Below, piece after piece: positions 1,614 to 30,497 of a stretch of DNA of 64,000 nt. Every line of letters starts with the position of its first letter. Within the stretch, counting starts at the first letter, position 1. The notes below the pieces were generated by a model. The model saw only the letters and a list, made by a program, of their open reading frames with translations. It made no database searches and had not been told where the DNA came from. The DNA is from Alphaproteobacteria bacterium (GTDB lineage Bacteria > Pseudomonadota > Alphaproteobacteria > UBA7887): assembly GCA_965216755.1 (NCBI GenBank), contig CBDCGL010000011.1, forward strand, positions 4,736,001 through 4,800,000, written 5' to 3'. Position numbers and translations under genes: made by a program.

Positions 1614-3188
1614 ATGGCAACGGGGCGGGGAGATCACAGCGACGGGTGGCAAGCGGAAGTCGACACACTGGCCGACCGCCTGCGACGCGCGCGCGAGATG
1701 GGCGGAGCGGAAAAAATCGCCCGTCAACGCGCCGCCGGACGGATGACCGTGCGCGAGCGGATCGACGCCCTGCTGGACCCGGATAGTTTCCACGAAATCG
1801 GTGCCATCGCAGGGCGCGCGCTTTATGACGACGATGGCGTGTTGCAGGACTTTACTGCGTCGAACATCGTCTTTGGCCGTGGGCGGATCAGCGGCCGCCC
1901 GACGGTGGTGGTCGGCGACGATTTCACCATCCGGGGTGGGGCCGCGGACGCCAGTATCCACGCCAAGCAAATCGCCGCCGAACAAATGGCCAATGAATTG
2001 CGATTGCCCATCGTCCGTTTGGTGGAGGGTACGGGCGGCGGTGGCTCGGTGAAATCGGTCGAAATGGATGGTTACACATATGTGCCGGCGAATCCCGGCT
2101 GGAATTGGGTCGTCGACAACATGGCGACCGTGCCCGTGGTGTCTCTGGCTCTCGGGCCCGTGGCCGGCCTGGGCGCAGCCCGCATGGTCGCCAGCCATTA
2201 TTCGGTCATGGTGAAGGAGCTGTCGCAAATATTCGTGGCAGGTCCGCCCGTCGTGGCGCAGGTCGCGCAAAGCGTGACAAAAGAAGAGTTGGGCGGCGCG
2301 GCGATCCACGGCAGCAACGGCGTTGTCGACGATGTCGTCGAGTCAGAACAGGAGGCGTTCGCCAAGGCCCGGCGCTTTTTGTCATACATGCCCCAATCGG
2401 TGGACCAGCTTGCCGCGCGCGGCGCCGTGACGGACGCGCCCGGACGGCGCGAAGACTGGTTGATCAAGGCCGTGCCGCGCAATCGCCGACGCGTTTACAA
2501 AGTGCGCCCGATTATCGAGGCAATTGTTGACCAAGAAAGCTTTTTTGAGATCGGCGCCGGCTACGGGCGCTCGATCGTTGCCGGGCTCGCCCGCTTGGAC
2601 GGCTGGCCCGTCGGCGTCGTCGCGACGGACCCCTACGTGTTTGGGGGCGCCTGGACGGCCGACGCATCGTTTAAACTGATGCGTTTTGTCGATACGGCCG
2701 AAACGTTCCATTTGCCGGTGGTGCATTTCGTTGATTGCCCAGGCTTTATGATCGGTGTCGAGTCCGAGAAGGCCGCAACGATACGGCATGGGACGCGGGC
2801 CTTGTCGGCGATCTATCAGGCCACCGTGCCCTGGTGTTCGGTGATATTGCGTCGCGCCTTCGGTGTCGCCGGGGCCGCGCATGGCAACCACACGCGCTTT
2901 CATTATCGTTTCGCCTGGCCGTCGGGAGATTGGGGGTCGTTGCCGCTCGAGGGTGGCATTGAAGCGGCATACAAGGCCGATCTGGCCGAAAGCGACGATC
3001 CAGACGCCTTGCGCGCGGATATTGAACGGCGCCTCAATCATGTGCGCTCGCCGTTTCGGACCGCCGAACGTTTCGGTGTCGAAGACCTCATCGATCCGCG
3101 CGACACGCGACCCCTGCTGTGCGAGTTTGCCAATCTGGCGGCACCCTTACGGAAATTGGGATCGCGGCAGTTTGGCATGCGTCCCTAA
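1614..3188 (+). CDS. Acyl-CoA carboxylase carboxyltransferase (beta) subunit
   Basis: GRMTVRERID.LLD, DFTIRGG, EELGG..H, DCPGFMIG, IDPRDTR motifs. Confidence 0.9.
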   Translation: MATGRGDHSDGWQAEVDTLADRLRRAREMGGAEKIARQRAAGRMTVRERIDALLDPDSFHEIGAIAGRALYDDDGVLQDFTASNIVFGRGRISGRPTVVVGDDFTIRGGAADASIHAKQIAAEQMANELRLPIVRLVEGTGGGGSVKSVEMDGYTYVPANPGWNWVVDNMATVPVVSLALGPVAGLGAARMVASHYSVMVKELSQIFVAGPPVVAQVAQSVTKEELGGAAIHGSNGVVDDVVESEQEAFAKARRFLSYMPQSVDQLAARGAVTDAPGRREDWLIKAVPRNRRRVYKVRPIIEAIVDQESFFEIGAGYGRSIVAGLARLDGWPVGVVATDPYVFGGAWTADASFKLMRFVDTAETFHLPVVHFVDCPGFMIGVESEKAATIRHGTRALSAIYQATVPWCSVILRRAFGVAGAAHGNHTRFHYRFAWPSGDWGSLPLEGGIEAAYKADLAESDDPDALRADIERRLNHVRSPFRTAERFGVEDLIDPRDTRPLLCEFANLAAPLRKLGSRQFGMRP

Positions 3189-3604
3189 GGGCGTTCGGCC
3201 CTGTCGCCGTCGCCGGCCTCGCGCGCCGCGCCGAGGATACGGGACACGGCGAAGAAATGGGTACGACATGATTCAAGATTGCGGCGGGCGACGCCAAGGT
3301 CGTCGTAGAGCTGGCACAACCAAGCCTCCCGCCGTTTGTCATCCAGCGGCTCCAGCGCGCCATTCGCGGCGGCGGCCTTGAAGCTTCGTATGGCGCGCAG
3401 GCGCTTGCGCAACTGGTCTTCGGCGGTGGCCAAGGCACTGCGCGCTTCACGGTAGGCGTGACGATCGGTGCCGCCCGCGATAAGCTCGGGTGGTATGGGC
3501 CCATCAAATCGCGTTTCCAGTTCTGCGAGGCGGCGAAGATCCCCGTCGGGTGGACTCTCGTCCCACAGCCTTATGGCCACAACAGGCCTCGGTCGGCGAT
3601 CCAC
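3185..3604 (-). CDS. Hypothetical protein, only sizeable gene of the leftward (pL-like) unit
   Basis: 139-aa ORF downstream of the leftward promoter; start uncertain because the strong RBS serves an out-of-frame 26-aa ORF at 3651-3571. Confidence 0.5.
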   Translation of the reverse strand: MDRRPRPVVAIRLWDESPPDGDLRRLAELETRFDGPIPPELIAGGTDRHAYREARSALATAEDQLRKRLRAIRSFKAAAANGALEPLDDKRREAWLCQLYDDLGVARRNLESCRTHFFAVSRILGAAREAGDGDRAERP

Positions 3605-3687
3605 TCACAATCCGACCAATCCGCCAAGGCCCAGATCAAATCCCTCGTCATCTACCTATCTCCTGAATTGACAATCAGCTTGAAAGC

Positions 3688-3716
3688 AACGTAAGTGTAA
3701 CTTACTTTAATGTCAA
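3688..3716 (-). promoter_or_regulatory. pL-like sigma70 promoter containing operator palindrome GTAAG-N5-CTTAC
   Basis: Minus strand TTGACA-17 bp-TACGTT; perfect palindrome at 3691-3705. Confidence 0.7.
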
Positions 3717-4010
3717 GTATTGCTTTCTTAAAGGTTAGCGGAATAGTAAGGGCAGGGCACGGCTGCGCGACGATTCGCGGCGCGTCGCTTTCGTGATTCG
3801 TTGCGGGTGTCGGGTGGGAGGGTAGGGATGGGCGGCGCGCAAGCAGGCGTCGGTGTCGGCGGCGTCCTGCGGGTCGATGCCGCGTTCACGACATAGATAG
3901 ACCGATCCGCGCGTATTGGCGGTCCGCGCTTCGACGCAGCTCAGGCGGCCAAGGCGAATCCCATGCGGCCCGGCGGTGCGCCTGGCGCCAAAAAAGCGAA
4001 GTCTTGCAAA

Positions 4011-4700
4011 CTATCGAATGCGCAAATTGCGGCGATAGCGGCGGTGCTCGACCATGGTTCCGATAATACGCGTGTCGCCATCGGGTTCGATGATCGTGGT
4101 CGGCCAATCGCTGTTGGCAGGTACGAGTTCGATCAGATAGGGGTGGCGGTCACCGCGCACCATGCGGTATTTGCGCAAATAGGCGTACGGGTAATTTGGC
4201 AGCTTTGCCAATACGATATCGCCGGGGTCGGGAGGTACGTCGGGGTCGATGACAACGCGGTCGCCGGTACGGATCTCGGGATCCATGCTGTCATCGGTAA
4301 CGGAAAAACCAAAGGCTCGATTGCCGACCACGACATCCGGCACAATTGTCGCCACGGTTGCGCCCAAATGGCGGACGACGGGATTCGGCCAATCGGCGGC
4401 CGAAAGATGGTCAAAAACATACAGCGCGCCTTGCTCGATTGGCGGCAGCTTGCCGGGCTCCTCGATCGGCAATTCCCGACCATCCGTATCTTGCATCGGG
4501 CCCTGATCGTTCGCCAGCCAAGATATATTGACGTTGTACATTAAGGCCAGATCAAGCAAGCGCGAACTGACCGGCGACGTCTTGCCGTTTTCCCACTGAG
4601 AGATCGATGAGCGGGTGACCGACAGCTGTTGGGCGACTTGGTCTTGGGAGAGGCCGGCACGCTGCCGGGCAAAGCGAAGACGTTCAGCCAAAGTTGACAT
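4011..4700 (-). CDS. CI-like repressor (XRE HTH + S24 peptidase)
   Basis: RLRFAR..AGLSQ..VA....VTRSSISQWENG HTH; DSM.P....GD.VVID and RK catalytic residues. Confidence 0.92.
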   Translation of the reverse strand: MSTLAERLRFARQRAGLSQDQVAQQLSVTRSSISQWENGKTSPVSSRLLDLALMYNVNISWLANDQGPMQDTDGRELPIEEPGKLPPIEQGALYVFDHLSAADWPNPVVRHLGATVATIVPDVVVGNRAFGFSVTDDSMDPEIRTGDRVVIDPDVPPDPGDIVLAKLPNYPYAYLRKYRMVRGDRHPYLIELVPANSDWPTTIIEPDGDTRIIGTMVEHRRYRRNLRIR

Positions 4701-4747
4701 AGCCGAAAGATGTGAGCGGATCTACCGCCTGTCACTGATAGAATCAC

Positions 4748-4776
4748 TTGACAAAGAGGTAAGACTTACTTAACAT
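4748..4776 (+). promoter_or_regulatory. pR-like sigma70 promoter containing operator GTAAG-N5-CTTAA
   Basis: TTGACA-17 bp-TAACAT; operator at 4759-4773, same offset from -35 as in the leftward promoter. Confidence 0.7.
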
Positions 4777-4837
4777 CCAATCTGGATAGGGCCACGGCGG
4801 TGTGTGCTGGGGCCAAACGTGGACAGAGGAGATAGAG

Positions 4838-5236
4838 ATGGAGTGCGCCTCGGGTTGTGGCAGGACGGTTCCGTCAAGAGACATGGCCGCGCGCTTGGCG
4901 ACGGCCGCGGATACACTCAAGCGGCTACCGGCGTCGGGGCTGCGTCCGCACGGCGTGCGCAGCGCCTGGCCCGATGTGGTGCGTTCAGTTCAAGAGGCTT
5001 ATGGCTATGAACGTGCGCGGATGCGTCCGCCACCGCCAACGCCGGAGGCGATTGACGATCTGGACCGCTGTTTGGATTTGGTCAGAACGCTGAGCCCGGA
5101 CGACCAGCGGTTGGTGTGGGCGCGCGCCCTTGGCGCCCGTTGGCAGCCCTTGTGTCGCAAATTCGGAGTTAGTCGCAGCACCCTGTGGCGGCGTTGGGCG
5201 ATGGCGTTGGAAGCTCTTTCCAAAGTAAACGAATAA
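4838..5236 (+). CDS. DUF6362-like phage late regulator / putative antiterminator
   Basis: RL..AA.TL.RLP..G.RP....SAWP...P.P.AI...LVWARA....W...G.SR.T.WRRW; RBS GAGGAG; directly before late promoter and terminators. Confidence 0.75.
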   Translation: MECASGCGRTVPSRDMAARLATAADTLKRLPASGLRPHGVRSAWPDVVRSVQEAYGYERARMRPPPPTPEAIDDLDRCLDLVRTLSPDDQRLVWARALGARWQPLCRKFGVSRSTLWRRWAMALEALSKVNE

Positions 5237-5241
5237 ATAGC

Positions 5242-5270
5242 TTGACAGAGAAATAACATTTTAGTATACG
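5242..5270 (+). promoter_or_regulatory. Late promoter 1
   Basis: TTGACA-17 bp-TATACG preceded by AAATAGC. Confidence 0.6.
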
Positions 5271-5392
5271 AAACATCGTAATCTGACGCAAATCAGGCGC
5301 GGTATCGCAAGCCACGTCTGTTGTAGACGCTGAATTGCGTTCAATTGCGATTTGGCGCGTGCGCATCGCGTTTGATTGATTGCATGGTCCAG

Positions 5393-5424
5393 AAGCCTCG
5401 TCGACATACCGGCGGGGCTTTTTC
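5393..5424 (+). terminator. Intrinsic terminator
   Basis: AAGCCTCGTCG-loop-CGGCGGGGCTT followed by T run. Confidence 0.65.
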
Positions 5425-5428
5425 GCGA

Positions 5429-5538
5429 CCTGAATGTGCGGCCGACGTTTGTGGCCGAAGCTGTGACTTAAGCAAGTGGCTTAGGTTTGTAGCCTAAGTT
5501 TGTAGTCTGCGTTTGCAACCTAAGTTTATCGCCTAAGT
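5429..5538. repeat. Degenerate 13-bp tandem array (consensus ~CCTAAGTTTGTAG, about 8 units)
   Basis: cctgaatgtgcgg/ccgacgtttgtgg/ccgaagctgtga/cttaagcaagtgg/cttaggtttgtag/cctaagtttgtag/tctgcgtttgcaa/cctaagtttatcg/cctaagt. Confidence 0.7.
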
Positions 5539-5568
5539 GGGGCGTGCCGATTGCGGCACGCCCCTTTT
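5539..5568 (+). terminator. Intrinsic terminator
   Basis: GGGGCGTGCCG-ATTG-CGGCACGCCCC-TTTT, perfect 11-bp stem. Confidence 0.8.
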
Positions 5569-5644
5569 CGTTTGGCATCGAGAGCGATCTCTAGCGGCGT
5601 AATTGTGCGCCGCCGAGGTCGCGTCTGACCCAGAGCACCCGCAT

Positions 5645-6883
5645 ATGTTTATCCCTTTTATGCCGCCGACGTTGGCGCAACGTGCCGCAATGGTCGAAGC
5701 ACTTTTGGCGCCACCGGCGCCGATGCTGCCAATGATCACGCCGGATTCGCCGATTGGCCGACCGGCGCAACCGGCAGTTCCGTTTGGGGCACCGTTCGGT
5801 GCCTTCGCGCCAATCGGTCCGGGCACGCCACCAGTATCCGAGAACGCGCACCGGCCGGGACCGTCAGCATTTGCCGGGCCATTATTTGGCGTGCCAATAC
5901 CGACGCCACCGCTGCCTCCGGTCATTCCGTCGCGGCAGGCCATGGTGGAGGCGCTTTTACCCGGGGCCGTCGTGAGCAGCTTCGAAGGCACGCCGACGGC
6001 GCCCGGTGCGCGGGTCGCCCCGGCTTCGCCGCCAAACTCGATGCAGCGCGCCATGGTGGAGGCGCTGTCACCGGATGTCGCCAAGTTCTTTGGATTTTCG
6101 CCGAACGGAGGCCCTGATGGCCCGGGCGCAACGCATCGAACGCCGACGAACCCACGGTTCCTTCCCAATCTCATTCTTGCCTCAGTCGGCCGCGATGAGC
6201 CACCGCCACCACAGAGTGTGGATGTGTTCAGTGATTTGCTTAAGCAAGGTGAGCCGGAGAGGTTATGGCGGGAGCCGTCAAATCCGACGCAACGAGAAAT
6301 CGGAGAGTTCATACTTTCGATCGCCCCGGGGGTCGGCGAGGTGATGTCGGCGATGGAAGCATATGACGCCTATAAAACTGCTTATGCGGCTTTGCAAGAC
6401 GGTGATACCCAGCGCGCTTTGGTTGCGGCGGCAAAGGGCACAACGGCATTGTTTTCGGTCATTCCCGTTTTCGGCCGCACTGTCAAGCTCTCGAAACTGG
6501 GTGTGATCCTCGCGCTGCGGCTCTTCGACCACGCTGACTACAAAGGTCCACAAATCAAGGAGGGGGAGGCGGGTGGCGAAAGTGCGAGCAGAAATTTCCC
6601 AAAAAAGGAAAAAGAGGCGACTAAGGTTCGCGACATTACAAGCACATGCGTATTTTGTCGGCAAGCGGGCGTCGGGGTCCAAGTGGATCATGCCCACCCA
6701 AAAGCGCGCGGCGGCAACGCAACGGAAGCGAACGCACAATTGGCCTGCGCCCATTGCAATCCGTCTAAGCGCGATCGAGACGTGCCTGTCAATCCCCCAC
6801 CCGGATGGCAAGGTGATTGGCCACCATACTGGATTGCAAAATGGCCGGAACTGCGGGGTATAGGTTTGCGGGTCCCGAGGTAA
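5645..6883 (+). CDS. Polymorphic toxin-like protein: Pro-rich N-terminus, pre-toxin TG-like hinge, C-terminal HNH nuclease
   Basis: CVFC...VDH..PK.RGG......N.QLAC.HCN.SK HNH; LSIAPGVGE hinge; followed by DUF4265-like genes. Confidence 0.8.
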   Translation: MFIPFMPPTLAQRAAMVEALLAPPAPMLPMITPDSPIGRPAQPAVPFGAPFGAFAPIGPGTPPVSENAHRPGPSAFAGPLFGVPIPTPPLPPVIPSRQAMVEALLPGAVVSSFEGTPTAPGARVAPASPPNSMQRAMVEALSPDVAKFFGFSPNGGPDGPGATHRTPTNPRFLPNLILASVGRDEPPPPQSVDVFSDLLKQGEPERLWREPSNPTQREIGEFILSIAPGVGEVMSAMEAYDAYKTAYAALQDGDTQRALVAAAKGTTALFSVIPVFGRTVKLSKLGVILALRLFDHADYKGPQIKEGEAGGESASRNFPKKEKEATKVRDITSTCVFCRQAGVGVQVDHAHPKARGGNATEANAQLACAHCNPSKRDRDVPVNPPPGWQGDWPPYWIAKWPELRGIGLRVPR

Positions 6884-7117
6884 AATGGAACGGTGCGTCG
6901 TGAGGGTTCGGCACACTGAGGAGAAAATAATTTCTGTGCTGGGTCCTATCTCAATCCATCATTTCAGTTGTTGAGATCGCGCAAGGATTGAATTACTTTG
7001 ATGACAATTCAATCGCTGTCGCGTAGATGTAAATTCAACTGTATCTCGCGAATCAATGATGCGAATAGAATATTTGAGCAAAGAATCCTGTAGAGGATAA
7101 ACAAAAAGGAAATCCGT

Positions 7118-7600
7118 GTGGGAAAATACAAAATATTCGAGCATTCTCTGCCACTGTGGGAAGACAAAGGCACGACCGTCGTCCTCGCTTACGTAACTGA
7201 TGATGAGGACAAGAATGAGTGGGAAGCCCTTTGGGCGCGTCAGATTAGAAAAGATCACTATGAAATTTGCTGTATACCATTCTTTGCCTATAAAATTGCC
7301 TTAGGCGATATTGTCCGGACCAATTCGAGACGGGCCGTGGTGGGCGTCGCTGAGCCTTCTGGTCGGTCCGTGTTTCGGGTCTACTTTAAGCCGGAATTTG
7401 ATGCAAGCACGCGAGAAGCGCGCATTCGAGATGTATTGAACGGTATCGCGGACTTAGGTGGCGAAATGGAATTCTACCATGAGGATCTTCTCGGTATTGA
7501 CGCGAAGAACAAGGATATCGCTAACAAAGTCGTTGAGTTCCTGAAGGAATGGGAAGGTAACACAGAGTTATTATTATACGAGCACGGCAAATATCCATGA
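7118..7600 (+). CDS. DUF4265-like putative immunity protein, copy 1
   Basis: E.LWA......YEI.CIPFFAY.IALGDIV....PSGRS.FRV; lower GC. Confidence 0.75.
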   Translation: MGKYKIFEHSLPLWEDKGTTVVLAYVTDDEDKNEWEALWARQIRKDHYEICCIPFFAYKIALGDIVRTNSRRAVVGVAEPSGRSVFRVYFKPEFDASTREARIRDVLNGIADLGGEMEFYHEDLLGIDAKNKDIANKVVEFLKEWEGNTELLLYEHGKYP

Positions 7601-7870
7601 ATATCAACATCGTGGTCGGGGCCCGATTTCAGCGACTGTTAACCTAATGCATCATACTTCGCAGACTATGTTTTAAAATCACAATTTGTGCGTTTGGTAA
7701 TGTGTCACCGTAATCCAAAGTTTCGCACGTCGAGAAAAGGTGTTTCTGGAGCGGGTCAGGGCGCGGTCTTGCGAACGCCGGGTGTTTGATGCGGTTTACG
7801 TCGACATAGGGCGATAGCGGCACGGTGTTTTTGCAAGAAATCCTGTGGGCATCCAACAAGAGGTTCCCGC

Positions 7871-8353
7871 GTGAAAAAATACAAAATATTTAAGCATTCC
7901 CTGCCATTGTGGCATGACAAAGTCGATTCCTTCATCATGGCTGACGTAACTGATGATGAGGACGAAGATCAGTGGGAGAAGATCTGGACACGTCGCGTTG
8001 AGAAGGAGCGCTATGAAATCTGCTGCATACCATTCTTCACCTATAAAATTGCCTTGGGCGACATCGTCCGTGCAGATTGGATGGGGGCTTTCAGATGGGT
8101 TGTCGAGCCCTCCGGTCGGTCCGTGTTTCGGGTCTATTTTGAGCCGGAATTCGATCCAAGCACGCGAGAAGCGCGCATTCGAGATGTTTTGAACGGTATC
8201 GCTGACTTAGGTGGCGAAATGGAATTCTACAATGAGGACCTCCTCGCTATTGACGCAAAGAACAAGGATATCGCTGACAAAGTCATAGAGTTTCTGAAGG
8301 AATGGGAAGATAATACCGAACTGCTGGAGTATGAGCACGGCAAGTATCCTTGA
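7871..8353 (+). CDS. DUF4265-like putative immunity protein, copy 2
   Basis: Same length and motifs as 7118-7600; ~750-bp tandem duplication including flanks. Confidence 0.75.
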   Translation: MKKYKIFKHSLPLWHDKVDSFIMADVTDDEDEDQWEKIWTRRVEKERYEICCIPFFTYKIALGDIVRADWMGAFRWVVEPSGRSVFRVYFEPEFDPSTREARIRDVLNGIADLGGEMEFYNEDLLAIDAKNKDIADKVIEFLKEWEDNTELLEYEHGKYP

Positions 8354-8524
8354 ATATCAACATCCTGGTCGCGGTCAAATTACGGTGACAGTTTACTAAA
8401 TGCATCGTACTTTGGAGACTTTGTTTCATGCTGACAGTTTGTGCATTTAGTAAACTGTCACCGAAATACCGAAACGCCGAAATGGCGCAGACTTCACAGT
8501 GTGGAGCGCATACAAAAAAATAGC

Positions 8525-8553
8525 TAGACACATAATACACAATTTGCTATAGT
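8525..8553 (+). promoter_or_regulatory. Late promoter 2
   Basis: TAGACA-17 bp-TATAGT preceded by AAATAGC, as in late promoter 1. Confidence 0.6.
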
Positions 8554-8579
8554 GCGAATGTTAAGTGGGGAGACGTATC

Positions 8580-8615
8580 GCCTCGGCGCCGAATTGGTGT
8601 CGGGGCTTTTTGTTT
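8580..8615 (+). terminator. Intrinsic terminator just downstream of late promoter 2
   Basis: GCCTCGGCGCC-GAATT-GGTGTCGGGGC-TTTTTGTTT. Confidence 0.7.
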
Positions 8616-8774
8616 GCCGGCGCTAGGAGCCGTCGCACAACGCGGCGGACATCGTTTCAGGGCCGGCAGCCAAATAGGCGAGCCAATCCCCAGGAAAAGG
8701 CGTGGATTGGCGGGATAATGGATCGCGGAGGCGGGGCCAGGATCCGACGAGAGGTGGCGGCGACAGCGGGGGGT

Positions 8775-10548: not shown

Positions 10549-10580
10549 GCCGGGCGCACCATCGGCAATAGGATAGGGCA

Positions 10581-14569: not shown

Positions 14570-14581
14570 GGGGGATCATAA

Positions 14582-20222: not shown

Positions 20223-20233
20223 GTCTCCGGCAA

Positions 20234-23593: not shown

Positions 23594-23944
23594 TTGTATC
23601 GCCGAGCGAAGGTGTCGATGGGGGCAAAAGTGGAGACGATATCGGCCGCGGATGTCGAGATGGTGGGGGCAGCGTGTGGCGTCGCCGCGAGCTTCATTTT
23701 TGTGCGCATGGTGGTCCGTACGGGCGACACCTTCCGTTGGTGGAAGGAATCGCGGCAGAGTCATCGTGAGTACAGAGAGAAACATCCCCAGCTCGGGCCA
23801 TATGATCCCAGTGGCTTGTCGGAGGAGTTTCTGGAATTGATTATCAAGAACTTGCCGGCACTAAAGCTGAGTGCTTTTTTGTACTTGGTATGTTTTGTGT
23901 GTTTCTTGGCGTCGGCGATCTATCGGTTCTTCGCTTTGCCTTAG
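23594..23944 (+). CDS. Two-TM small protein, family C copy 1
   Basis: ISAADVEMVGAACG..AS...LY...FVCF.ASA.YR.FAL shared with 26629-27018; start uncertain. Confidence 0.65.
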   Translation: MYRRAKVSMGAKVETISAADVEMVGAACGVAASFIFVRMVVRTGDTFRWWKESRQSHREYREKHPQLGPYDPSGLSEEFLELIIKNLPALKLSAFLYLVCFVCFLASAIYRFFALP

Positions 23945-23973
23945 AATTTAAAACTGGAGCGCCAATGACGAAT

Positions 23974-24004
23974 GGGTCGGTGCCTGTCGGCAGCGGCCCT
24001 TTTT
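23974..24004 (+). terminator. Intrinsic terminator
   Basis: GGGTCGGTGCC-TGTC-GGCAGCGGCCC-TTTTT; homologous hairpin at 27048-27079. Confidence 0.6.
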
Positions 24005-24037
24005 GTTGGCCAAACACAACAACAGGAGAACGACATC

Positions 24038-25177
24038 ATGCCCTGGAACGGATCCGGGACCTTTAGTCGCACCGACGGCACGCGCAACGGCGCGACCGTT
24101 TGGGAGCAGGCCAAGGCGGCGGCGGTAAAGATTGTCGCTGGCGATCACGACACACACGACCAGGATTTGGCGCAAGGCATCCAGAATTGTTTGGCCAAAG
24201 ATGGTCAAAACAGTCCATCCACGCATATCGACTGGGGTGGGCAACGGATCACCAATTTGGGTGCGCCGGCGGCCGCGACCGATGTGGCGCGCAACGATTT
24301 AAATGGCGTGAGCGCATCGACGGCGCGGACAAATTTGGGCTTGGGGGCGCTGGCGATACAGTCGACGATTAACACCGCGGACATCGGCGATAATGAAGTG
24401 ACGCCGGCCAAACTATCCCATGGCACCGCCAATCAAGTTCTGGCCATGGACGGCGGTTCGCCCGACTGGCGCGACCTGTCGACGGCGTTGGACAACGCGA
24501 TCGGTGGCACACAAGGCAATATTCTGTACCGGGGTGCCGCGACTTGGGACGTGTTGGCGCCGGGAACATCGGGGCAGTTTCTGGCGTCGCAGGGTGCGGG
24601 CGCTAACCCGCAATGGGTCGATGCACCTGTCGCCAGCCGCATGGTGTTGATCGCCACTCAGAATATCACCAGCGGCGTCGCACAAGTCGATTTCGCCAGC
24701 GGCATCGACGGCAGCTACGACGTGTACAAGCTGCTGATCGCGCTGGGTCACGTGGCCACGGATGGCGTCGATTTGTTGCTGCGTATCGGTACAGGTGGTG
24801 GACCAACCTATCAGGCGACCAACTATCGGCGGTCGGCTATGCGCGTTGGCGCCGATTCGACGACCGGCGTGCAATCGGACGGTGCCAGTTCAGCCACATC
24901 CATCAATTTGAGCGACGGCGGGACCAACACGATCGGCAACGCCGCGACGGAATGTTTCAATGGCGAGATAACGTTGTTCAATCCAGCCGACGGCACGCGT
25001 CACAAGCCGATCACGTATGACATGACGTGGCTGGAGCCGGATGGCGAAGTTAGCCGATCATCCGGTGCCGGTGTGTGGTCGGGCGGTGCCGACGCGATCA
25101 CGGCGCTGCGGTTGCTGGCCAGCAGCGGCAATATTGATGGCGGTCGGTTCAGTTTATTCGGGATCAACCATGGCTGA
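24038..25177 (+). CDS. Tail fibre/spike protein
   Basis: MPWNGSGTF anchor, D.A.GI..CL.KDG, ARTNLGLG, GT.GQ.L repeats, G.F.L.G C-terminus; RBS AGGAG. Confidence 0.8.
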   Translation: MPWNGSGTFSRTDGTRNGATVWEQAKAAAVKIVAGDHDTHDQDLAQGIQNCLAKDGQNSPSTHIDWGGQRITNLGAPAAATDVARNDLNGVSASTARTNLGLGALAIQSTINTADIGDNEVTPAKLSHGTANQVLAMDGGSPDWRDLSTALDNAIGGTQGNILYRGAATWDVLAPGTSGQFLASQGAGANPQWVDAPVASRMVLIATQNITSGVAQVDFASGIDGSYDVYKLLIALGHVATDGVDLLLRIGTGGGPTYQATNYRRSAMRVGADSTTGVQSDGASSATSINLSDGGTNTIGNAATECFNGEITLFNPADGTRHKPITYDMTWLEPDGEVSRSSGAGVWSGGADAITALRLLASSGNIDGGRFSLFGINHG

Positions 25178-25227: not shown

Positions 25228-25280
25228 GGCCGCCAAAGCCAACCTGGCGGGCTTCGAAGCAATGATGCATGTGTTCGGCG
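25228..25280 (+). pseudogene. Remnant of ejection-protein 3' end
   Basis: GGCCGCCAAAGCCAACCTGGCGGG..GCA.TGATGCA.GTGTT.GG matches 19482-19533. Confidence 0.65.
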
Positions 25281-25300: not shown

Positions 25301-25879
25301 TCAGTCCTTTAACGTCATTTCTAGATCGGTTATGACGGCGGCCAGGAACAAAGCATCGTCAAAGCCGACATAGCGATGGCGTGAGATTTTGGAGATTCGA
25401 AAACAGATTGTATGGCGCAAGAAAGGGCCAAACAAAGTTGTACGGTAAGTCATCGCGAGAACGAAAGCACAGTGGGCGCGCTCGAATGGTTCACGAATAT
25501 CTTCGGGCAGATCATCAGCAATTTTACGAAGCTCTTGCCAACGCGTGAAAGTCACGTCCCACTGACTGAAAGGCAGTTTCTTGGCCTCTTCCGGTCGTTC
25601 CGGAATCGCGATCGAAGCCCAGAAACGCAAGTGACCAGTGATAAGAAGCCTAATGAGAGGCCACATTCCAAAATCTCGACATATGAGGTCGGCCAATGTT
25701 GAGCACGCTGAATCCGCTGGGCTGCCAAAATGATCACTTTTGGCGAAGATCCCTTGAACACGAAGTACATCGTGTTCCAAATCGGATCGAATTCTAAGGC
25801 CACGCAAAGTCGCACACGACCACATACCAACTAGAATCAAAACAAAGCTAACTGAAAGCAGCCACGTGGGGGTTGTCAA
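25301..25879 (-). CDS. Membrane-anchored hypothetical protein, family A copy 3 (diverged)
   Basis: IADDLPEDIREPFERAHCAFVLA..GPFLRHTICFRISK.SRHRYVGFDDALFL. Confidence 0.7.
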   Translation of the reverse strand: MTTPTWLLSVSFVLILVGMWSCATLRGLRIRSDLEHDVLRVQGIFAKSDHFGSPADSACSTLADLICRDFGMWPLIRLLITGHLRFWASIAIPERPEEAKKLPFSQWDVTFTRWQELRKIADDLPEDIREPFERAHCAFVLAMTYRTTLFGPFLRHTICFRISKISRHRYVGFDDALFLAAVITDLEMTLKD

Positions 25880-25896
25880 TGATTTGATGTCTCAAT

Positions 25897-26184
25897 TTAC
25901 GGTACATTGTGCTTCTTCCCGGCGGTGTTTGTTCGTCCGGAATTATTCACTTGTCGTTGATGGCGTAGATGCGAGACCGCTTCGCGACGACGTTTGAGTT
26001 TATCTTGGTACTCGAGCGCGCCCCTTATAAGGGCGACAATGTAGATAACGCAGGCGCCCAACGCAGCTAGGAATATTACCACCGAAGTCGCCATCACAAG
26101 GTAACCAGAGAAAAAAGTCTGCAGCCAATGTAGGGTTAACGCCCAAAGCTGGTGGACAAAAACCAAAGCCCGATCAAAAAACAT
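25897..26184 (-). CDS. Single-TM small protein, family B copy 3 (diverged)
   Basis: MFFD...HWLQTFFSGYL...S...F.AAL. Confidence 0.55.
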   Translation of the reverse strand: MFFDRALVFVHQLWALTLHWLQTFFSGYLVMATSVVIFLAALGACVIYIVALIRGALEYQDKLKRRREAVSHLRHQRQVNNSGRTNTAGKKHNVP

Positions 26185-26324
26185 CCGATTCGCTAAATCA
26201 CACGTGAGGTTATCCAGGGTCGCCTTAAGAAATGTGGATTTAATCTTATCTGAAAACATTAGTGAAATACAAGCCTGCGATCTGCGACCGGCCGCCACGG
26301 ACGCGTGACAAAACGGGATGCCAA

Positions 26325-26582
26325 AGAACGTTTCCATTTGTGTGCTTCGCCTCGATCAACCTAGGAATTGGAAGGGTGCATTTCGACATGCAACTAACCC
26401 TCTGAGCGAACGTCTGCTCGGGCAAGCGGGCCCAAGGCTGCAATTGGGTGTCACCCTCGACATGTCGAAACTTCCCGTGATCGAGCCGTGGTCGGAAACT
26501 CCGACGGTTCTACTCGCTTGTTAGAATTCCCTGGTCCGCGATGCGGTGGTTGGTGTATCGAAGGGCACCGGCTTGGCACAGG
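26325..26582 (+). pseudogene. Decayed 5' end of the 21699 toxin gene
   Basis: LGQAG..Q......PVIEPWSE...VL..*N..VR aligns with LGQTG..Q......PVFEPWLE...VL..SN..VR; internal stop; remainder deleted. Confidence 0.6.
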
Positions 26583-26628: not shown

Positions 26629-27018
26629 TTGAATAACGTGATGGAGAGTTGCGGAAAACTTGACGTGCCTAGCAGTCGTCGACATCTGCGGAAGGCGACA
26701 GTGAAAGTGATTTCCGCCGCAGACATTGAGATGCTCGGGGCCGCGTGCGGTATCATCGCGAGCCTAATTGTGGCACGCATTGTGGCCAAAGCAGGTCGTA
26801 CGATGCGCCGGATGTACGTGTCGCATAAGTGGGATCTTGAGCATTATGCTACTAGGCATCCGGATATCATGCAGGATCACTACAACAGATTGTCAGTACA
26901 AATGCTACGTTTGATTGTTGAAAATTTACGAGCAATTTCATTGAGTATTATTCTGTACTTCATTTTCTTTGTTTGTTTCTTTGCCTCTGCGATGTATCGA
27001 TATTTCGCCCTGACCTAA
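26629..27018 (+). CDS. Two-TM small protein, family C copy 2
   Basis: Paralogue of 23594-23944; start uncertain. Confidence 0.65.
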   Translation: MNNVMESCGKLDVPSSRRHLRKATVKVISAADIEMLGAACGIIASLIVARIVAKAGRTMRRMYVSHKWDLEHYATRHPDIMQDHYNRLSVQMLRLIVENLRAISLSIILYFIFFVCFFASAMYRYFALT

Positions 27019-27112: not shown

Positions 27113-27400
27113 ATGCTCTGGAAAAAGTCCGCGATCTTTAATCGCATCGCGCGCACGCGATACGGCGACACGGCGAATATTGAAGGCGAGATAACGATGT
27201 TCAATCCAGCCGACGGCACGCGTCACAAGCCGATCACGTATGACATGACGTGGCTGGAGCCGGATGGCGAGGTTAGCCGATCGTCCGGCGCCGGTGTGCG
27301 GTCGGGCGGTGCCGACGCGATCACTGCGCTGCGTTTGCTGGCCAGCAGCGGCAATATTGATGGCGGTCGGTTCAGTTTGTTCGGGATCAATCACGGCTGA
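27113..27400 (+). pseudogene. Internally deleted tail-fibre copy (degenerate N-terminus fused in frame to the last 71 aa)
   Basis: MLWKKSAIFNRIARTRYG ~ MPWNGSGTFSRTDGTRNG, then near-identical C-terminus; retains RBS. Confidence 0.7.
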
Positions 27401-27411: not shown

Positions 27412-27699
27412 ATGACGTTCACTGTTGCGGCCGCCTTATTGGCGGCTTTTTTATCGCCCATTTCCGCGCGCCCCGTGTGCGCGCCCCATGACGATGCCGT
27501 CGCCGCGTTGCGCGACCGCCATCAGGAAACACGTCAGGCCTTCGGCATGGGCACGGGCGGTCAGCGCTTGATGGAAATCTATGCCAGCGACTCGGGCGCG
27601 TTCACAGTCTTGATCACGGACGTCCGAGGTCTGGCGTGCGTGGTTATGGTGGGGGAAGGCTGGTCTGTCGACACCGTGCCGCAAGGGGACCCGTCATGA
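27412..27699 (+). CDS. Small secreted phage protein (two Cys)
   Basis: Signal peptide; C..H......L...H.E.....G......E...S..G.FT......G.AC....G..W. Confidence 0.7.
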   Translation: MTFTVAAALLAAFLSPISARPVCAPHDDAVAALRDRHQETRQAFGMGTGGQRLMEIYASDSGAFTVLITDVRGLACVVMVGEGWSVDTVPQGDPS

Positions 27700-27920
27700 A
27701 CATCGATGATCTGGCGCAACAGATCGGCCGGCTGCAAGGCGATGTGCAGTCCATGAGCTTGCGCTTGGCGCAACTGGAAGGCGACGTGCGGGCCTTGAAA
27801 GCCGTGGCCAACATCGGCAAAGGCGCGTTCTGGGTTGCCCTGAAACTGGGTGGCGGCTTGACGTTGATCGCAGCGGCTGCTTTCGGCGTGCGCGACTGGA
27901 TCAAGCATCTTTTTTCGTGA
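27696..27920 (+). CDS. Putative holin (coiled coil + one TM)
   Basis: IGRL.G.V coiled coil, C-terminal TM, directly before lysin. Confidence 0.55.
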   Translation: MNIDDLAQQIGRLQGDVQSMSLRLAQLEGDVRALKAVANIGKGAFWVALKLGGGLTLIAAAAFGVRDWIKHLFS

Positions 27921-27930
27921 GGCTCGAACG

Positions 27931-28587
27931 ATGATTGTACCACGTGGCATTCGCAACCATAACCCTGGCAATATCAAGCTCAGCCGCGATCGGTGGCAAG
28001 GGCTGGCGCCGGTGCAGGGAGATTCGACGTTCTTTCAGTTCACGGCACCGACCATGGGCATTCGGGCCCTGGCGCGGACGCTGATCACCTATCAAGATCG
28101 TCATGAACTGACGACCGTTCGGCAAATGATCAGTCGCTGGGCGCCGCCGGCTGATGGCAATCCCACGGAGCGCTACGTTCACTATGTCGGCGAATACATG
28201 CATGTTGCGCCGGACGCCTCGGTTGATATGCATCGTTTCGACGACGCCCGTGCCTTGGTCGAAGCCATAATTTGGTACGAAAACGGGCAGCAACCCTATG
28301 GCCCGCGGGTGATCGGCAAGGGTCTCATGCTGGCGGGGATCGAGCCGCCGTCACGTGATTTGCGCATGTCGCGCACGGTGCGCGGCGGCCAGGCCGCCGT
28401 GGCGGCGACAGTCGGCAGCGGGATCATCGCGGCCGTTGACGACATTTCCCAGTCGGCGAAAACCGAACTTATAGGTCTGCTGCCGTTTCTGCCATGGCTG
28501 AAATATGCCTTGCTTATTTTCATTCTGGCCGGACTCGGCGCCATGCTGTGGGCGCGCGTCGACGATCACCGGCGGGGGTTGCGCTGA
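27931..28587 (+). CDS. Putative endolysin (structural protein P5-like) with C-terminal membrane segments
   Basis: PRGIRNHNPGNI, GIRA....L..Y, RWAPP..N.T..Y, AII..ENG. Confidence 0.75.
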   Translation: MIVPRGIRNHNPGNIKLSRDRWQGLAPVQGDSTFFQFTAPTMGIRALARTLITYQDRHELTTVRQMISRWAPPADGNPTERYVHYVGEYMHVAPDASVDMHRFDDARALVEAIIWYENGQQPYGPRVIGKGLMLAGIEPPSRDLRMSRTVRGGQAAVAATVGSGIIAAVDDISQSAKTELIGLLPFLPWLKYALLIFILAGLGAMLWARVDDHRRGLR

Positions 28588-29057
28588 TGATTGGCGCGAT
28601 CGGTCGGCTGCTGATGGGTGGCGGCATGCGCTGGATGCTCATCGCTGCGATTGTCGGCGGCGGCGTCATCTATGGCTGGTGGCAACAACAACGGGTGGCG
28701 AGCTTGCGCGGCCAATTGGCCGTTACCGAGGCCCGTGTCGGTCAAGCCGATGCCGCTTTGGCAAACTTGCTCACGCAACGCGCCGACGAAGCAGAACGAC
28801 TCATAAACTTGCGAAGGAACTTGGCGACAGCCGATGCGGAAAACCAAAGAGCACAAGCGCAGATCGACACGCTGCGGGCAACCATTGAAACCGAACTGGC
28901 GACGGATCCGGATGCATTTGCACGTGGTGCCACTTGCCGTCTTAATCGGATCCTGCACGGCCTCCACCACGCCAGTGGTGGTAACGCCGCCACCGGCGTT
29001 ACCGGTTGCGGCGCCGACGCCGATCCGCCCTTGCGCGGTGACGGTGACCGCAGATAA
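28587..29057 (+). CDS. Inner-membrane spanin (Rz-like)
   Basis: N-terminal TM + coiled coil; TGATG coupling to lysin. Confidence 0.7.
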   Translation: MIGAIGRLLMGGGMRWMLIAAIVGGGVIYGWWQQQRVASLRGQLAVTEARVGQADAALANLLTQRADEAERLINLRRNLATADAENQRAQAQIDTLRATIETELATDPDAFARGATCRLNRILHGLHHASGGNAATGVTGCGADADPPLRGDGDRR

Positions 29058-29175
29058 CTCAACTGTTCGTTTGTCACCACAAGATTGGCTGACCTTGGAA
29101 GCGTGTTTGGCCGACGCCGCGCGCTACGTACGCCAGCTGCGCGATATTCAGGAAATCGAAAATTCGGCGCGTTAG
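28912..29175 (+). CDS. Outer-membrane lipoprotein spanin (Rz1-like)
   Basis: Overlaps Rz in another frame; lipobox LIGSC; Pro-rich. Confidence 0.65.
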   Translation: MHLHVVPLAVLIGSCTASTTPVVVTPPPALPVAAPTPIRPCAVTVTADNSTVRLSPQDWLTLEACLADAARYVRQLRDIQEIENSAR

Positions 29176-29189
29176 TTCGGTCGGCGGCA

Positions 29190-29530
29190 GGATCCCCTCT
29201 GTCAGTGGGCGAAAATGCTGGCGAGGAAGTACCAATATGACGACACATAGAAACCAAGGTCCGGAATGGAAACAAAGAAACCCAGACGGCCAAAAAACAA
29301 ATGGCGAGAATGTTCAAGGCCGATGTGGCGATCATGACCGAACGAATTCTTTCGCATTCAATGAGCATGTAAACATTCGAGACGACAACCATGAAGGCCG
29401 TGACGTAAATCATCGCCCAAAAGGTCAGTGTACCAGGGACCCAAAGCAGATAAGATCGATCAACCGCAAACGGAATGGCGACATTGGTTAGCGTCCACGT
29501 TGTCGATAATTGCCGGTCTACGCGTTCCAT
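29190..29530 (-). CDS. Three-TM protein, family D copy 1 (frame stays open into the spanins; true end uncertain)
   Basis: TW...NV..PF, IYV..F...VSN..M.IE...RS.MI....LN shared with 29567-29959; RBS AGGAAG. Confidence 0.5.
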
Positions 29531-29566
29531 CTTCCTTCCCTCAAAAGAAAACGGTTGATTTCCCGC

Positions 29567-29959
29567 TTAGCGATTTGCATGGTGCCACGATAAGGCCCAG
29601 TGTGTCGACTGGAAGTTCGGAAGCAGGACGATCGTGCCAAAGAATCCCGGATGATGTAGGAAAACGAAAGAAGACAGGTTGAGCAACAAGACCAAAATCA
29701 TGAATGATCTACGTGGGCGATGCTCAATTATCATGGCAATATTGCTGACGGTCATAACAAAAACGACAACATAGATGGCCAAAGGATACAGATAATAGTG
29801 AAACGATTCGTGTTTAGACCAGTGAATGACCATAAATGGCAAGACAACGTTCACGATCATCCACGTTGGCGCGAAAGTTAGAGCAGTGTCAGACAATATT
29901 GAACCATTCTGTTCGCGGCCCGGCGTCGCGAGCCGCCCGACTAATGTGGTCGTCCACAT
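29567..29959 (-). CDS. Three-TM protein, family D copy 2
   Basis: Paralogue of adjacent ORF; lower GC. Confidence 0.55.
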   Translation of the reverse strand: MWTTTLVGRLATPGREQNGSILSDTALTFAPTWMIVNVVLPFMVIHWSKHESFHYYLYPLAIYVVVFVMTVSNIAMIIEHRPRRSFMILVLLLNLSSFVFLHHPGFFGTIVLLPNFQSTHWALSWHHANR

Positions 29960-30497
29960 GGATTCTCATTGGGGGTCGCCCGCAGTTTGCGAACCCGCGG
30001 GGCCGGGCGCATTTCCGCCAATCTCGGCGTCGCTGTCCTTGGCCGTATTCCCGATACGCCCCGCGGACAGCGACTTGATCTTGACAGAAATGCGCTGCGG
30101 CAGAATGATTCAATATTGTCTGACACTGCTCTGCAGTGTTGCTGACGTCATGAGAGCGACGACCGTCGATATCTATTTTTCCAATCCGCGCGAACCAAAA
30201 TCTTCAATAACGAACAGCTTTGTGGACGCATTGTCCTGATGCCCGCGCATTGCACCGCTCAAATCCGGACCAAGCGCCAGGAGAATGAAAGCCTGTTCAT
30301 CCAACACAACGGCGCATACCGGCCACTCTCACGCCGCACGCCAAAACGACCGCGACCGGGCAGTCTTTCCAATTCCCCTACGCGCCACCGTAACAGCAAA
30401 CACCTATGTGCACGGCGCCAATAGCCCGGCGATCATGAGTTGACCAATGACGAAATTATAACGGACGCTGTCGCGTATGGGAAGTGATTCGTTCGAT

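Follow-up and report, generated by a model that had tools for sequence, protein, structure and literature searches.

We analysed a 64,000-nucleotide stretch of an alphaproteobacterial genome (GenBank assembly GCA_965216755.1, contig CBDCGL010000011.1, positions 4,736,001 to 4,800,000), which carries a phage element of about 26 kb. The whole stretch is called the window here and corresponds to G000:C11:4736001-4800000; positions without a prefix refer to it. The assembly, G000, has 5.0 Mb with a GC content of 59% and consists of one contig of 4.85 Mb (C11) and ten contigs of 4-26 kb. The element extends from 3185 to about 29060-30480. The initial annotation had set its limits at 3185 and 30000; the left one was retained and the right one was replaced by this interval. 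The element is probably a defective prophage that arose by deletions and is now locked in the chromosome, with a remaining wiring that looks functional. By its family matches it is of the short-tailed phage type, with a capsid and adaptor of the SU10 type and a portal of the P22/Mx8 type.

The virion genes were assigned with Pfam at the gathering cut-offs and with PHROG profiles, and were compared with C3, a 24.5-kb contig of the same assembly, and with 54 loci of structural relatives in IMG/VR. On C3, a syntenic module runs from the portal to a virion protein called X with 45-88% amino acid identity (major capsid protein 88%, nozzle 80%, portal 71%). The IMG/VR relatives keep the large terminase (TerL), the portal, a 356-residue protein, the major capsid protein, two small head proteins, the adaptor, the nozzle and a GNAT-like gene. 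In the element, these genes all lie on the plus strand. A candidate small terminase (8565-9116), proposed from its position upstream of TerL, matched only PHROGs of unknown function (E 2e-5), and its true start is probably downstream of a terminator described below. TerL (9001-10548) matched Terminase_6N and Terminase_6C and had 16 relatives in IMG/VR with up to 53% identity. The portal protein (10581-12506) reached 27.6 bits with P22_portal against a cut-off of 26.1 and is 71-72% identical to the C3 copy. It shares 33% identity with the portal of Mx8 and 38% with that of Bradyrhizobium phage ppBjS10J-1, and the nearest named phages by this protein, at 30-38%, are podophages or small temperate phages of Myxococcus, Bradyrhizobium, Rhizobium, Ruegeria and Brucella. 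The following 356-residue protein (12503-13573) is scaffold-like by position, gave no family match, is 45% identical to its C3 counterpart and was found at 10 of the 54 loci. The major capsid protein (13595-14569) is of the SU10 type (SU10_MCP, PF17236, 29.5 against a cut-off of 24.1), with 88% identity to C3 and up to 64% to the IMG/VR relatives.

Two conserved head or neck proteins (14582-15091 and 15173-15835; phrog_20268) come next, which are 57% and 70% identical to C3 and occur at 6 and 30 of the 54 loci, respectively. They are followed by a head-to-tail adaptor of the SU10 type (15968-16759; SU10_adaptor, PF24175, 42.8 against a cut-off of 27, E 1e-10) and by a conserved virion protein of 513 residues of the tail or nozzle type (16756-18297; phrog_5107, E 8e-90), 80% identical to C3 and present at 31 of the 54 loci. 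Inside the structural module lies a gene for a GNAT-like acetyltransferase (18327-18707) with weak GNAT matches in Pfam. Its homologues cover residues 71-195 of the open reading frame (ORF), and the gene is kept in the module of this phage group, on C3 and at 19 of the 54 loci. The X protein of the element, X-290 (18700-19572; phrog_6121), is a virion structural protein and a candidate ejection protein, whose last 40 or so residues diverge from the C3 copy in the alignment.

A tail-fibre-like protein of 401 residues (23972-25177) matched phrog_14820 (E 1e-15) and phrog_13989, a virion structural protein. A lysis cassette (27412-29057) encodes a small secreted protein with a signal-peptide-like start (27412-27699), a holin-like protein with a coiled coil and a transmembrane segment, recognised by eye from its translation (27636-27920), an endolysin (27931-28587; phrog_873, E 9e-54) and an Rz-like spanin (28494-29057); further matches in the cassette were to phrog_214, 89 and 739. 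For the small secreted protein, three paralogues of 37-38% identity were seen on C11 near 784526, 4363804 and 4392795. With Pfam and PHROG, no tape measure, tube or sheath gene was found, nor a long tail gene between the adaptor and the lysis genes. The core genes are all full length when compared with their homologues on C3 and in IMG/VR, and none of the about 20 late genes contains a frameshift or a stop. The family matches bore out the architecture of repressor, one regulator, virion and lysis genes that the initial annotation had described. The head-tail-lysis set had also been called uninterrupted; its genes are present, but they are interrupted by three minus-strand cassettes and two fragments (25228-25278 and 27113-27400).

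Genes for integration and replication were not detected. The 37 ORFs of the element that were scanned with Pfam gave no match to integrase, recombinase, primase, helicase or replication-initiator families, and when PF00589 was run against all six frames of the whole genome, it matched 11 times, each time outside the window. Further integrases were located in the assembly, on the contigs C1, C7, C8 and C9. No convincing direct repeat joined the two ends of the element. This agrees with the earlier statements that integrase, excisionase, recombinase, primase, helicase and att repeats are missing. On its gene content, the element should be unable to excise or to replicate.

The left end of the element points to a deletion. 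The sole surviving gene of the early-left arm (3185-3604, minus strand) encodes 139 residues with no assigned function and no Pfam or PHROG match. Residues 23-120 are 43% identical to a product of contig C1 (L008:5167-5508), whose gene is located 4 kb from an integrase. The last 19 or so codons extend beyond this homology up to the stop of a host carboxyltransferase gene (1614-3188), with which they overlap. Since the homology breaks off this far ahead of a stop that overlaps that of the host gene, we read the left end as a truncation junction rather than an attachment site.

The junction was also covered by Logan contigs from four runs, which belong to two samples of one study. Record 1 of X1 and record 24 of X4, which start at 2400 or 2527 and extend to 7433, run without a difference from the host gene through the repressor gene and the gene of the DUF6362 protein to the toxin-like gene HNH-426. 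Record 9 of X2 likewise runs from the host gene to HNH-426. No contig end or joint was reported at 3185; such contigs drop rare variants, and the coverage concerns the left junction only. The contig depth over the element was about that of the flanks, a measure that cannot rank regions. Three short joints (3237 to 5027, 8466 to 19292 and 10379 to 13020) were discarded as unreliable, with only 21-22 letters on one side. The DNA of the element is known from this one study (2 samples) only, and no RNA run was listed among those that contain it.

A fuller relative of the element seems to be present in the same assembly. In addition to the structural module, C3 has its own DUF6362 gene (50% identity) just upstream of a different TerL, and the early genes upstream of DUF6362 comprise DUF1064, a methylase-like gene, an REase-like gene and a weak CII-like match. 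Contig C1 (8.7 kb) carries a tyrosine integrase, a Gp157-like gene, a pentapeptide gene and the 43% homologue of the 139-residue gene. Together, C1 and C3 seem to make up the greater part of a complete temperate sibling phage. They share no overlapping contig ends and could not be linked to the chromosome; an episome, a prophage left unresolved or a phage binned with the genome would each be possible. Five long relatives were available in IMG/VR, 3 of which have an integrase, and three that are rated 99-100% complete measure 37-40 kb. As complete relatives have this size, the element lacks about 11-14 kb, which would correspond to the integrase arm and the early-right replication arm. We propose two deletions. 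The first would have removed the integrase and almost the whole early-left arm, and the second everything between a repressor-controlled rightward promoter and DUF6362, so that this promoter would have been fused to the late regulator.

The switch region itself appears to be preserved. The gene at 4011-4700 (minus strand) encodes a CI/LexA-type repressor with an N-terminal helix-turn-helix (HTH) and a C-terminal S24 peptidase domain (Peptidase_S24, E 3e-15; HTH_19, E 1e-14; HTH_3; Phage_CI_repr), which confirms the repressor predicted in the initial annotation. A serine in the context DDSMDP and a downstream lysine were recognised by eye. On one side of the gene, an operator-like palindrome, GTAAG-N5-CTTAC (3691-3705), occupies the spacer of a TTGACA-N17 site that points leftward (about 3690-3718, noted by eye). 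On the other side, a second palindrome (4759-4769) sits in the spacer of a rightward promoter-like site, TTGACA-17-TAACAT (4748-4776, plus strand), which leads straight into DUF6362. The pattern GTAAG-N(1-5)-CTTAC occurs twice in the 64-kb window, both times flanking the repressor gene, where 0.06 occurrences were expected; 0 of 100 shuffles reached 2. The paired palindromes are candidate operators to which the repressor would bind. The early units hold one gene each, as had been described, the 139-residue gene to the left and DUF6362 to the right. The element may still be SOS-inducible: self-cleavage of the S24 repressor upon an SOS signal would release the expression of DUF6362.

The DUF6362 protein (4838-5236, plus strand; PF19889, E 5e-33; phrog_6836, E 3e-33) is a candidate late regulator with a C-terminal HTH. 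It has 132 residues from the ATG at 4838 in an ORF that opens at 4802, and showed weak HTH and Sigma70_ECF (sigma-region-4-like) matches. The initial annotation had named a late regulator; the gene is there, and the regulatory role follows from its position rather than from an annotated function. A literature search returned nothing on DUF6362. The family occurs in alphaproteobacterial prophages, and a search of 5.8 billion protein clusters found five proteins including the query, the best with about 50% identity.

Directly after the DUF6362 stop codon, the first copy of a late promoter, AAATAGCTTGACA...TAGTAT (5234-5269), opens a unit (5234-5564, plus strand) that continues with a leader, in which a 13-bp repeat is present in 4.2 copies (5485-5538), and closes with a strong intrinsic terminator (5539-5564). 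A second copy, AAATAGCTAGACA...TATAGT (8517-8553), with a terminator at 8580-8606, precedes the terminase genes on the same strand. The segment 8517-8606 aligns with the sequence after DUF6362 in C3 (L007:7830-7738). The simplest history would be that a cassette of HNH-426 and two DUF4265 genes (about 5250-8516) was inserted into the late promoter region and duplicated the promoter. DUF6362 would act at both promoter copies, by read-through or activation, and would turn on two units, the toxin cassette with HNH-426 and the two DUF4265 genes, and the operon of the terminase, head, tail and lysis genes. Between the second DUF4265 gene and the second promoter lies a palindromic dispersed repeat of the host (8379-8467; 89 bp, 26-nt arms that are 96% complementary), which is MITE/REP-like and has 38 loci, all on C11, with a partial copy at 7689-7714. 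Because this host repeat was inserted within the element, the element is not brand new and has had some residence time.

Late control in phage λ involves the antiterminator Q, the promoter PR' and the terminator tR'. The element resembles this arrangement in that the putative regulator comes last among the early genes, its stop codon is directly followed by a near-consensus promoter, and an intrinsic terminator is found 45-290 nt after the promoter and before the late genes; the same layout is present in the sibling C3. Unlike in λ, the late promoter is duplicated around an inserted cassette, and DUF6362 has no detected similarity to the Q families; it is the layout that suggests antitermination.

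Other DUF6362 loci, 18 in number and drawn from 257 pattern matches, were compared with the element. None of them is syntenic with it, and only L030 has a TerL of the C3 type. A recognisable TerL lies 0.5-3.8 kb downstream of DUF6362 at 3 of 20 loci (the window, C3 and L030), the gene content of the other 17 not being annotated. A strong terminator about 104 nt past the DUF6362 stop was present at 8 of the 18 other loci, one of which has no downstream sequence, and six of the 18 have in common a conserved hairpin without a T-run. As a separate observation, the alphaproteobacterial DUF6362 contigs L037, L038, L041, L042 and L043 share 88-93% nucleotide identity with L037 over 6-18 kb, including the non-coding leader and the terminator after DUF6362. 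Their records name Marimonas, Alexandriicola, Palleronia, a Porphyrobacter metagenome-assembled genome (MAG) and a Rhodobacteraceae MAG, and these loci may represent a widely spread prophage or phage-like element.

If the switch still fires, the cell would lyse and chromosomal DNA would be packaged in place from near the terminase genes, as in lateral transduction, and the element could not propagate itself. Lateral transduction by P22-like phages is described in the available text of PMC8575938.

Two proteins of the element are toxin-like. HNH-426 (5603-6883, plus strand) has a proline-rich N-terminus with three copies of the motif RQAMVEALL, a pre-toxin-like centre and a C-terminal HNH domain (Pfam HNH, E 2e-7, residues 349-391). 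Y-556 (21699-23321, plus strand; 540 residues from the ATG at 21699) has a proline-rich N-terminus with one copy of the motif, a pre-toxin-like module at residues 255-350 or so and a C-terminal putative nuclease domain that is MuF_C/PBECR-like. The central module common to both extends over 103 residues with 31% identity (E 5e-10). A HMMER search with Y-556 over 1.84 billion representative proteins (E<=1e-3) found 42 proteins of 73-1112 residues, including Y-556 itself, and most of the matches cover the central module, at varying positions. When these 42 proteins and HNH-426 were scanned with Pfam, a minority gave a match: PBECR1 in 3, PG_binding_1 in 2, and PBECR2, PBECR3, LPD3, Phage_Mu_F, GIY-YIG, PI-PLC-X, ART, Endonuclea_NS_2, Peptidase_C39 and HNH in one each. 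Such a spread, over at least 10 different effector families, is what a pre-toxin module of polymorphic or polyvalent proteins would show. The shared module is previously undescribed and has no Pfam family. An assignment to the PT-TG pre-toxin domain was rejected, as no Pfam match was obtained even at E<=10; the term PT-TG did not occur in the available text of PMC3482391. The earlier prediction of two embedded toxin-like genes was upheld by this common module, which in other proteins is joined to nucleases, an ADP-ribosyltransferase, a phospholipase and MuF. A plain terminase-associated HNH protein is less likely for HNH-426, because it has a multidomain build of 426 residues and the shared pre-toxin module.

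Y-556 gave no Pfam match, PBECR included, and Phage_Mu_F (PF04233) was absent from both toxin-like proteins even at E<=10. Its homologues P0008, P0022 and P0009 match PBECR1, 2 and 3, respectively, below the cut-off (19-22 bits against 27-30). In the Atlas, the PBECR families (PF18809, PF18810 and PF18812) came up as look-alikes at 0.80-0.82, which is taken as a lead only. The C-terminal domain aligns with the C-terminus of the MuF protein P0045 and with proteins that bear sub-threshold PBECR2/3 matches. An AlphaFold model of this domain (pLDDT 72) had 10 matches in BFVD at E<=1e-3, among them the names Nuclease, MuF C-terminal domain and PolyVal ADP-ribosyltransferase; Foldseek found no match in the PDB at E<=0.001. 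A word search of the 5.8 billion protein clusters with Y-556 returned only itself.

The motif links the toxin-like proteins to the virion. The pattern [RQK][RQKA]A[MAL][VTA]E[AV]L[LSM] was searched in a six-frame translation of the whole 5.0 Mb genome and occurs 6 times, with three copies in HNH-426, one in Y-556 and one in X; the X proteins of the window and of C3 have two EALL motifs each. We infer that the common motif may serve as a docking or loading signal. Loading of HNH-426 and Y-556 into the particle is plausible because the motif is shared with a virion protein and because of their position behind the late promoter copies. Both would be made along with the virion and probably be loaded through the motif they share with X.

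Candidate immunity genes lie next to the toxin-like genes. The two tandem DUF4265 genes (7118-7600 and 7871-8353, plus strand, 48% GC; PF14085, E 1e-21 each) are 76% identical in amino acids and may encode immunity proteins for HNH-426. A complex prediction of the HNH domain with DUF4265 was weak, with a median of 0.42 (runs 0.42, 0.05 and 0.55), a best control of 0.00 and a partner pLDDT of 81-85. In the calibration of the tool, the mark was reached by 58 of 80 solved complexes and by 2 of 110 mismatched pairs; values of 0.60 or less were seen in only 7 of the 80, and passes in this range are more often wrong than right unless the pairing is likely beforehand. Relatives of DUF4265 in the 5.8 billion clusters numbered 18 proteins, the best outside the element being 47% identical, and the literature on DUF4265 concerned an unrelated context only. 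Z1 (23624-23941, plus strand), a small membrane protein and a paralogue of Z2 (48% identity to 26629-27018), is by its position a candidate immunity protein for Y-556. HNH-426 and the DUF4265, A/B, Y and Z genes were found in none of the 54 IMG/VR relatives.

Toxins packaged in the heads of ordinary temperate phages have been proposed (Zhang et al. 2012, PMC3482391, Table 1), and the available texts of PMC5576092 (Jamet et al. 2017) and PMC5512222 (Iyer et al. 2017) describe MuF polymorphic toxins of temperate phages and polyvalent proteins, respectively. Because toxins in temperate-phage heads had already been proposed (PMC3482391), a toxin cargo alone does not imply a co-opted machine. Like the MuF toxins and polyvalent proteins, HNH-426 and Y-556 are phage proteins of several domains, in which a shared module precedes a C-terminal nuclease or toxin domain that varies, and, as with the MuF toxins, candidate immunity genes lie downstream and the location is beside the packaging genes. 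Unlike the MuF toxins, they have no MuF domain, and their N-terminal part is proline-rich with a motif shared with a podophage virion protein.

The tail region contains several duplications. After X follow the cassettes A1-B1 and A2-B2 on the minus strand, then Y, Z1 and the tail fibre, an X remnant, A3-B3 on the minus strand, Z2, a fibre fragment and the lysis genes. A1-B1 and A2-B2 (19632-21699, 53% GC) are tandem duplicates of a two-gene cassette for small membrane proteins, with 79% identity between the A copies and 64-69% between the B copies. The third cassette (25301-26337, 49% GC) is divergent, with A3 56-57% and B3 30-36% identical to copies 1 and 2. The X remnant is a 3' end of 51 nt (25228-25278, plus strand) that is 82% identical to 19482-19532, and Z2 (26629-27018, plus strand) is a small membrane protein with weak Pfam matches below the cut-off. 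In the orphan C-terminal fragment of the tail fibre (27113-27400, plus strand), the last 76 residues are 92% identical to the end of 23972-25177, and 241 nt are 91-95% identical at the DNA level. We read the region as one module beside an incomplete copy that has diverged from it, as recombination between related phages typically leaves behind. An invertible tail-fibre segment as in Mu with Gin was considered as the cause of the minus-strand cassettes and rejected, as the repeats are direct, not inverted, and no invertase was found. The A and B proteins gave no Pfam or PHROG match and only unnamed clusters in the Atlas. Their cassettes are candidates for moron-like genes, for which immunity or superinfection exclusion would be a guess. 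The duplicated small genes that had been called immunity-like are indeed duplicated (DUF4265 twice, A and B three times each, Z twice), and immunity is a candidate role. A contig of X2 (depth 5.8) joins 20419 to 21472 and skips exactly one A/B unit of 1052 bp, which is either a single-cassette variant in the population or an assembly collapse of repeats that are 80-86% identical.

We then weighed the defective prophage with its functional-looking wiring against four other explanations. In the first, the element would be an inert remnant on its way to loss, whose late genes are no longer expressed or assembled and survive only as the deletions are recent. The two large deletions, the truncated left gene and the orphan fragments of the tail fibre and X would fit this, no relatives show maintenance, and the toxin cassette with the host repeat puts 3.3 kb between DUF6362 and the terminase genes. 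We consider it rather unlikely, as the about 20 late genes are free of frameshifts and stops, and no damage is seen in the regulator, the operators, the two late promoters or the terminators. In addition, no excess of unique substitutions was observed. In a three-way comparison with the best IMG/VR outgroup over nine genes, 167 unique amino acid changes were counted for the window and 165 for C3. These counts give no sign of relaxed constraint; recent deletions would lead one to expect the same, and the mosaic nature of phage genes weakens the relative-rate test.

The initial annotation had put forward a domesticated particle. In this case a device like PBSX or a gene transfer agent (GTA), induced by stress or SOS, would release short-tailed particles with host DNA and/or toxins that kill or transform neighbours, and the duplicated genes would protect the kin. 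A minimal circuit with one repressor and one regulator ahead of the late and lysis genes, and with no damage to any core gene, is consistent with such a device. So are the lack of excess amino acid change compared with the sibling copy (167 against 165), the residence time indicated by the host repeat and the toxin-like proteins behind the late promoter copies with a motif shared with a virion protein; with no excision possible, any particle must carry host DNA. The distribution of the element argues against it. The portal was found in 2 of the 41 genomes searched, G000 itself and one of another family with 34% identity; thus, 0 of the 22 other genomes of the host family and 1 of 18 from other families of the class had it, in a collection with no genome of the same genus. 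Carboxyltransferase orthologues were present in 21 of the 22 family relatives with up to 73% identity. At all six of these 21 loci that were fetched, none of nine other flanking host proteins was found within 16-20 kb, and an AMP-ligase paralogue of 29% identity was the sole flank match. The family relatives are too distant for an empty site to be defined.

Further points speak against a domesticated particle. DUF6362, Y-556 and DUF4265 have no relative above about 50% identity in the 5.8 billion clusters and the 1.84 billion representatives, and the sequence is confined to a single study. Control lies with a phage-type repressor and not with a host regulator, and the gene fragments and the partial module duplication in the tail region look like scars of recombination. 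Toxin-carrying virion proteins are also described for ordinary temperate phages in the available texts of PMC3482391 and PMC5576092. Taken with the fuller sibling in the assembly, the size of 37-40 kb of the complete relatives and the truncated left end, these results did not support the domesticated particle, which we regard as unlikely. There is no evidence that the host maintains the element for its own benefit, and nothing found requires a reading as a GTA- or PBSX-like device.

A complete phage of an unconventional kind would have to use Xer or the integrase of C1/C3 for integration, and the 13-bp array at 5485-5538 with host proteins for replication. An iteron-like array of 4.2 x 13 bp just after DUF6362, the integrases on C1, C7, C8 and C9 and the related phage in the assembly could be taken in favour. 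This is very improbable, as the ends have no att-like repeats, the left end is a truncated gene with a stop overlapping the host stop, the element is 11-14 kb shorter than the complete relatives, and contigs in 2 samples bridge the left junction, none ending at 3185, with the reservation that contigs drop rare variants. An assembly or binning artefact, in which a contiguous early region was left among the 10 small unplaced contigs, some with integrases and phage early genes, can be dismissed, as the independent Logan contigs run from the host gene through the repressor and DUF6362 to HNH-426, and C1 belongs to a different phage because its own copy of the 139-residue gene is only 43% identical.

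Some observations weigh against the deletion-derived defective prophage that we prefer. About 20 intact late genes and a working-looking switch, with both early arms gone, are tidier than random decay, and such retention is what selection for particle production would leave. A dispersed host repeat was inserted in the element, yet no structural gene is broken. The relative-rate counts are uneven between genes, with 47 changes in the window against 24 in C3 for the portal, and 10 against 31 for the nozzle. C1 and C3, which have no overlapping contig ends, are possibly from a binned phage or another strain and not from the same cell. Finally, the terminator after DUF6362 may simply end the early operon, the role of DUF6362 being that of a candidate.

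The defective prophage was compared with known phage-derived particles. PBSX of Bacillus subtilis has the repressor Xre, the positive factor Xpf and terminase, head, tail and lysis genes, lacks integrase and replication genes and packages host DNA. The element is similar in having a repressor, one positive late factor (presumably DUF6362) and the genes from terminase to lysis without integration and replication functions, in being locked in the chromosome, and in that any packaged DNA must be host DNA. Unlike the element, PBSX is contractile-tailed, occupies one conserved locus in the strains of Bacillus and has been shown to kill; the element is short-tailed, was found in one genome, and has a self-cleaving S24 repressor and a DUF6362 protein unrelated to Xpf. 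R and F pyocins are controlled by the repressor PrtR and the activator PrtN. As there, an S24-type repressor cleaved after DNA damage would free a single activator of the structural and lysis genes. Unlike the pyocins, which are headless, the element keeps the terminase, portal and capsid, and DUF6362 is not PrtN.

GTAs such as RcGTA and BaGTA show vertical conservation throughout whole orders and are under the control of host regulators. The element shares with them a phage-derived head-tail cluster without integration and replication genes and would carry host DNA if active. It differs by its absence from all 22 family relatives searched, by a phage repressor with paired candidate operators, and by a capsid type that predicts a normal head of about 38 kb, not a reduced one; the complete relatives of 37-40 kb likewise suggest a full-size head. 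To Mx8, Mx9, ppBjS10J-1, Rhizobium phage RHph_I3_18 and the Brucella Tb-group phages, the element is similar in the portal (30-38%) and in the short-tailed gene order. Unlike the element, these are complete phages of 38-53 kb, and no similarity at the DNA level was seen. It is a doubtful possibility that the element is a short-tailed counterpart of PBSX, a non-excising particle factory triggered by SOS that would fill its heads with neighbouring DNA including the furan-degradation genes, recruit nuclease effectors by the EALL motif and protect the kin by DUF4265, A/B and Z, acting both as a gene transfer agent and as a toxin injector.

At the right end, two small paralogous ORFs for membrane proteins (29230-29959, minus strand, 51% GC), whose similarity was seen by eye in the translations, gave no family match, and it is uncertain whether they are part of the element. 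They are followed by an enoyl-CoA-hydratase-like gene (30498-31343, minus strand) with about 30 paralogues, so that host metabolic genes abut the element at both ends, in accordance with the initial annotation. Beyond this gene, Pfam identified an AMP-ligase and then 2Fe-2S, FAD and MoCo dehydrogenase genes; the host cluster to the right of the element comprises furan-degradation genes. A second dispersed repeat of about 253 bp with 32-nt terminal inverted repeats was noted at 29880-30132 and has 45 loci, on C11 only; both dispersed repeat families of the host look like MITE or REP elements. A tRNA-Arg(TCT) gene (44494-44570) and an IS481-type transposase (44615-45829, minus strand; rve, LZ_Tnp_IS481) lie 14 kb to the right of the element and are unconnected to it. 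Rfam found 0 families in positions 1-32000 of the window.

Outside of the window, an island of about 7 kb (G000:C11:4704891-4712223; L009:4891-12223) was observed 24-31 kb upstream, between the genes of a response regulator and a histidine kinase. It contains ORFs of 753, 137 and 1021 residues without a Pfam match, a segment of 3.5 kb that is 98% identical to the C3 segment between TerL and the portal, and beside it a fragment like the end of the C3 portal. The island may be a phage remnant or a mobile cassette with a giant phage protein. In contig C8 (26.4 kb), the first 10.65 kb recur 15.7 kb further on as the last 10.65 kb, with 99.95% identity, and two identical integrase matches are present; C8 looks like a circular element of 15.7 kb that was assembled about 1.7 times. 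Because the first and last 600 bases of C11 are 100% identical to adjacent stretches at about 3,959,419-3,960,617, this contig is broken inside a repeat and is probably circular.

In conclusion, the element as it stands belongs to an ordinary class of objects, the defective prophages. Its repressor, DUF6362 and the duplicated late promoter and terminator form a natural minimal circuit that could give DUF6362 a first function. The toxin-like proteins resemble polymorphic toxins outside the MuF family in a short-tailed phage, with a central module that was found in 41 other proteins out of 1.84 billion, and the motif shared with a virion protein suggests a testable loading signal. If the element is not inducible, it would be only a well-preserved remnant. 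If it can still be induced, host DNA must be packaged in place, and the element would be a clean natural case of lateral transduction or GTA-like behaviour arising from simple deletions.

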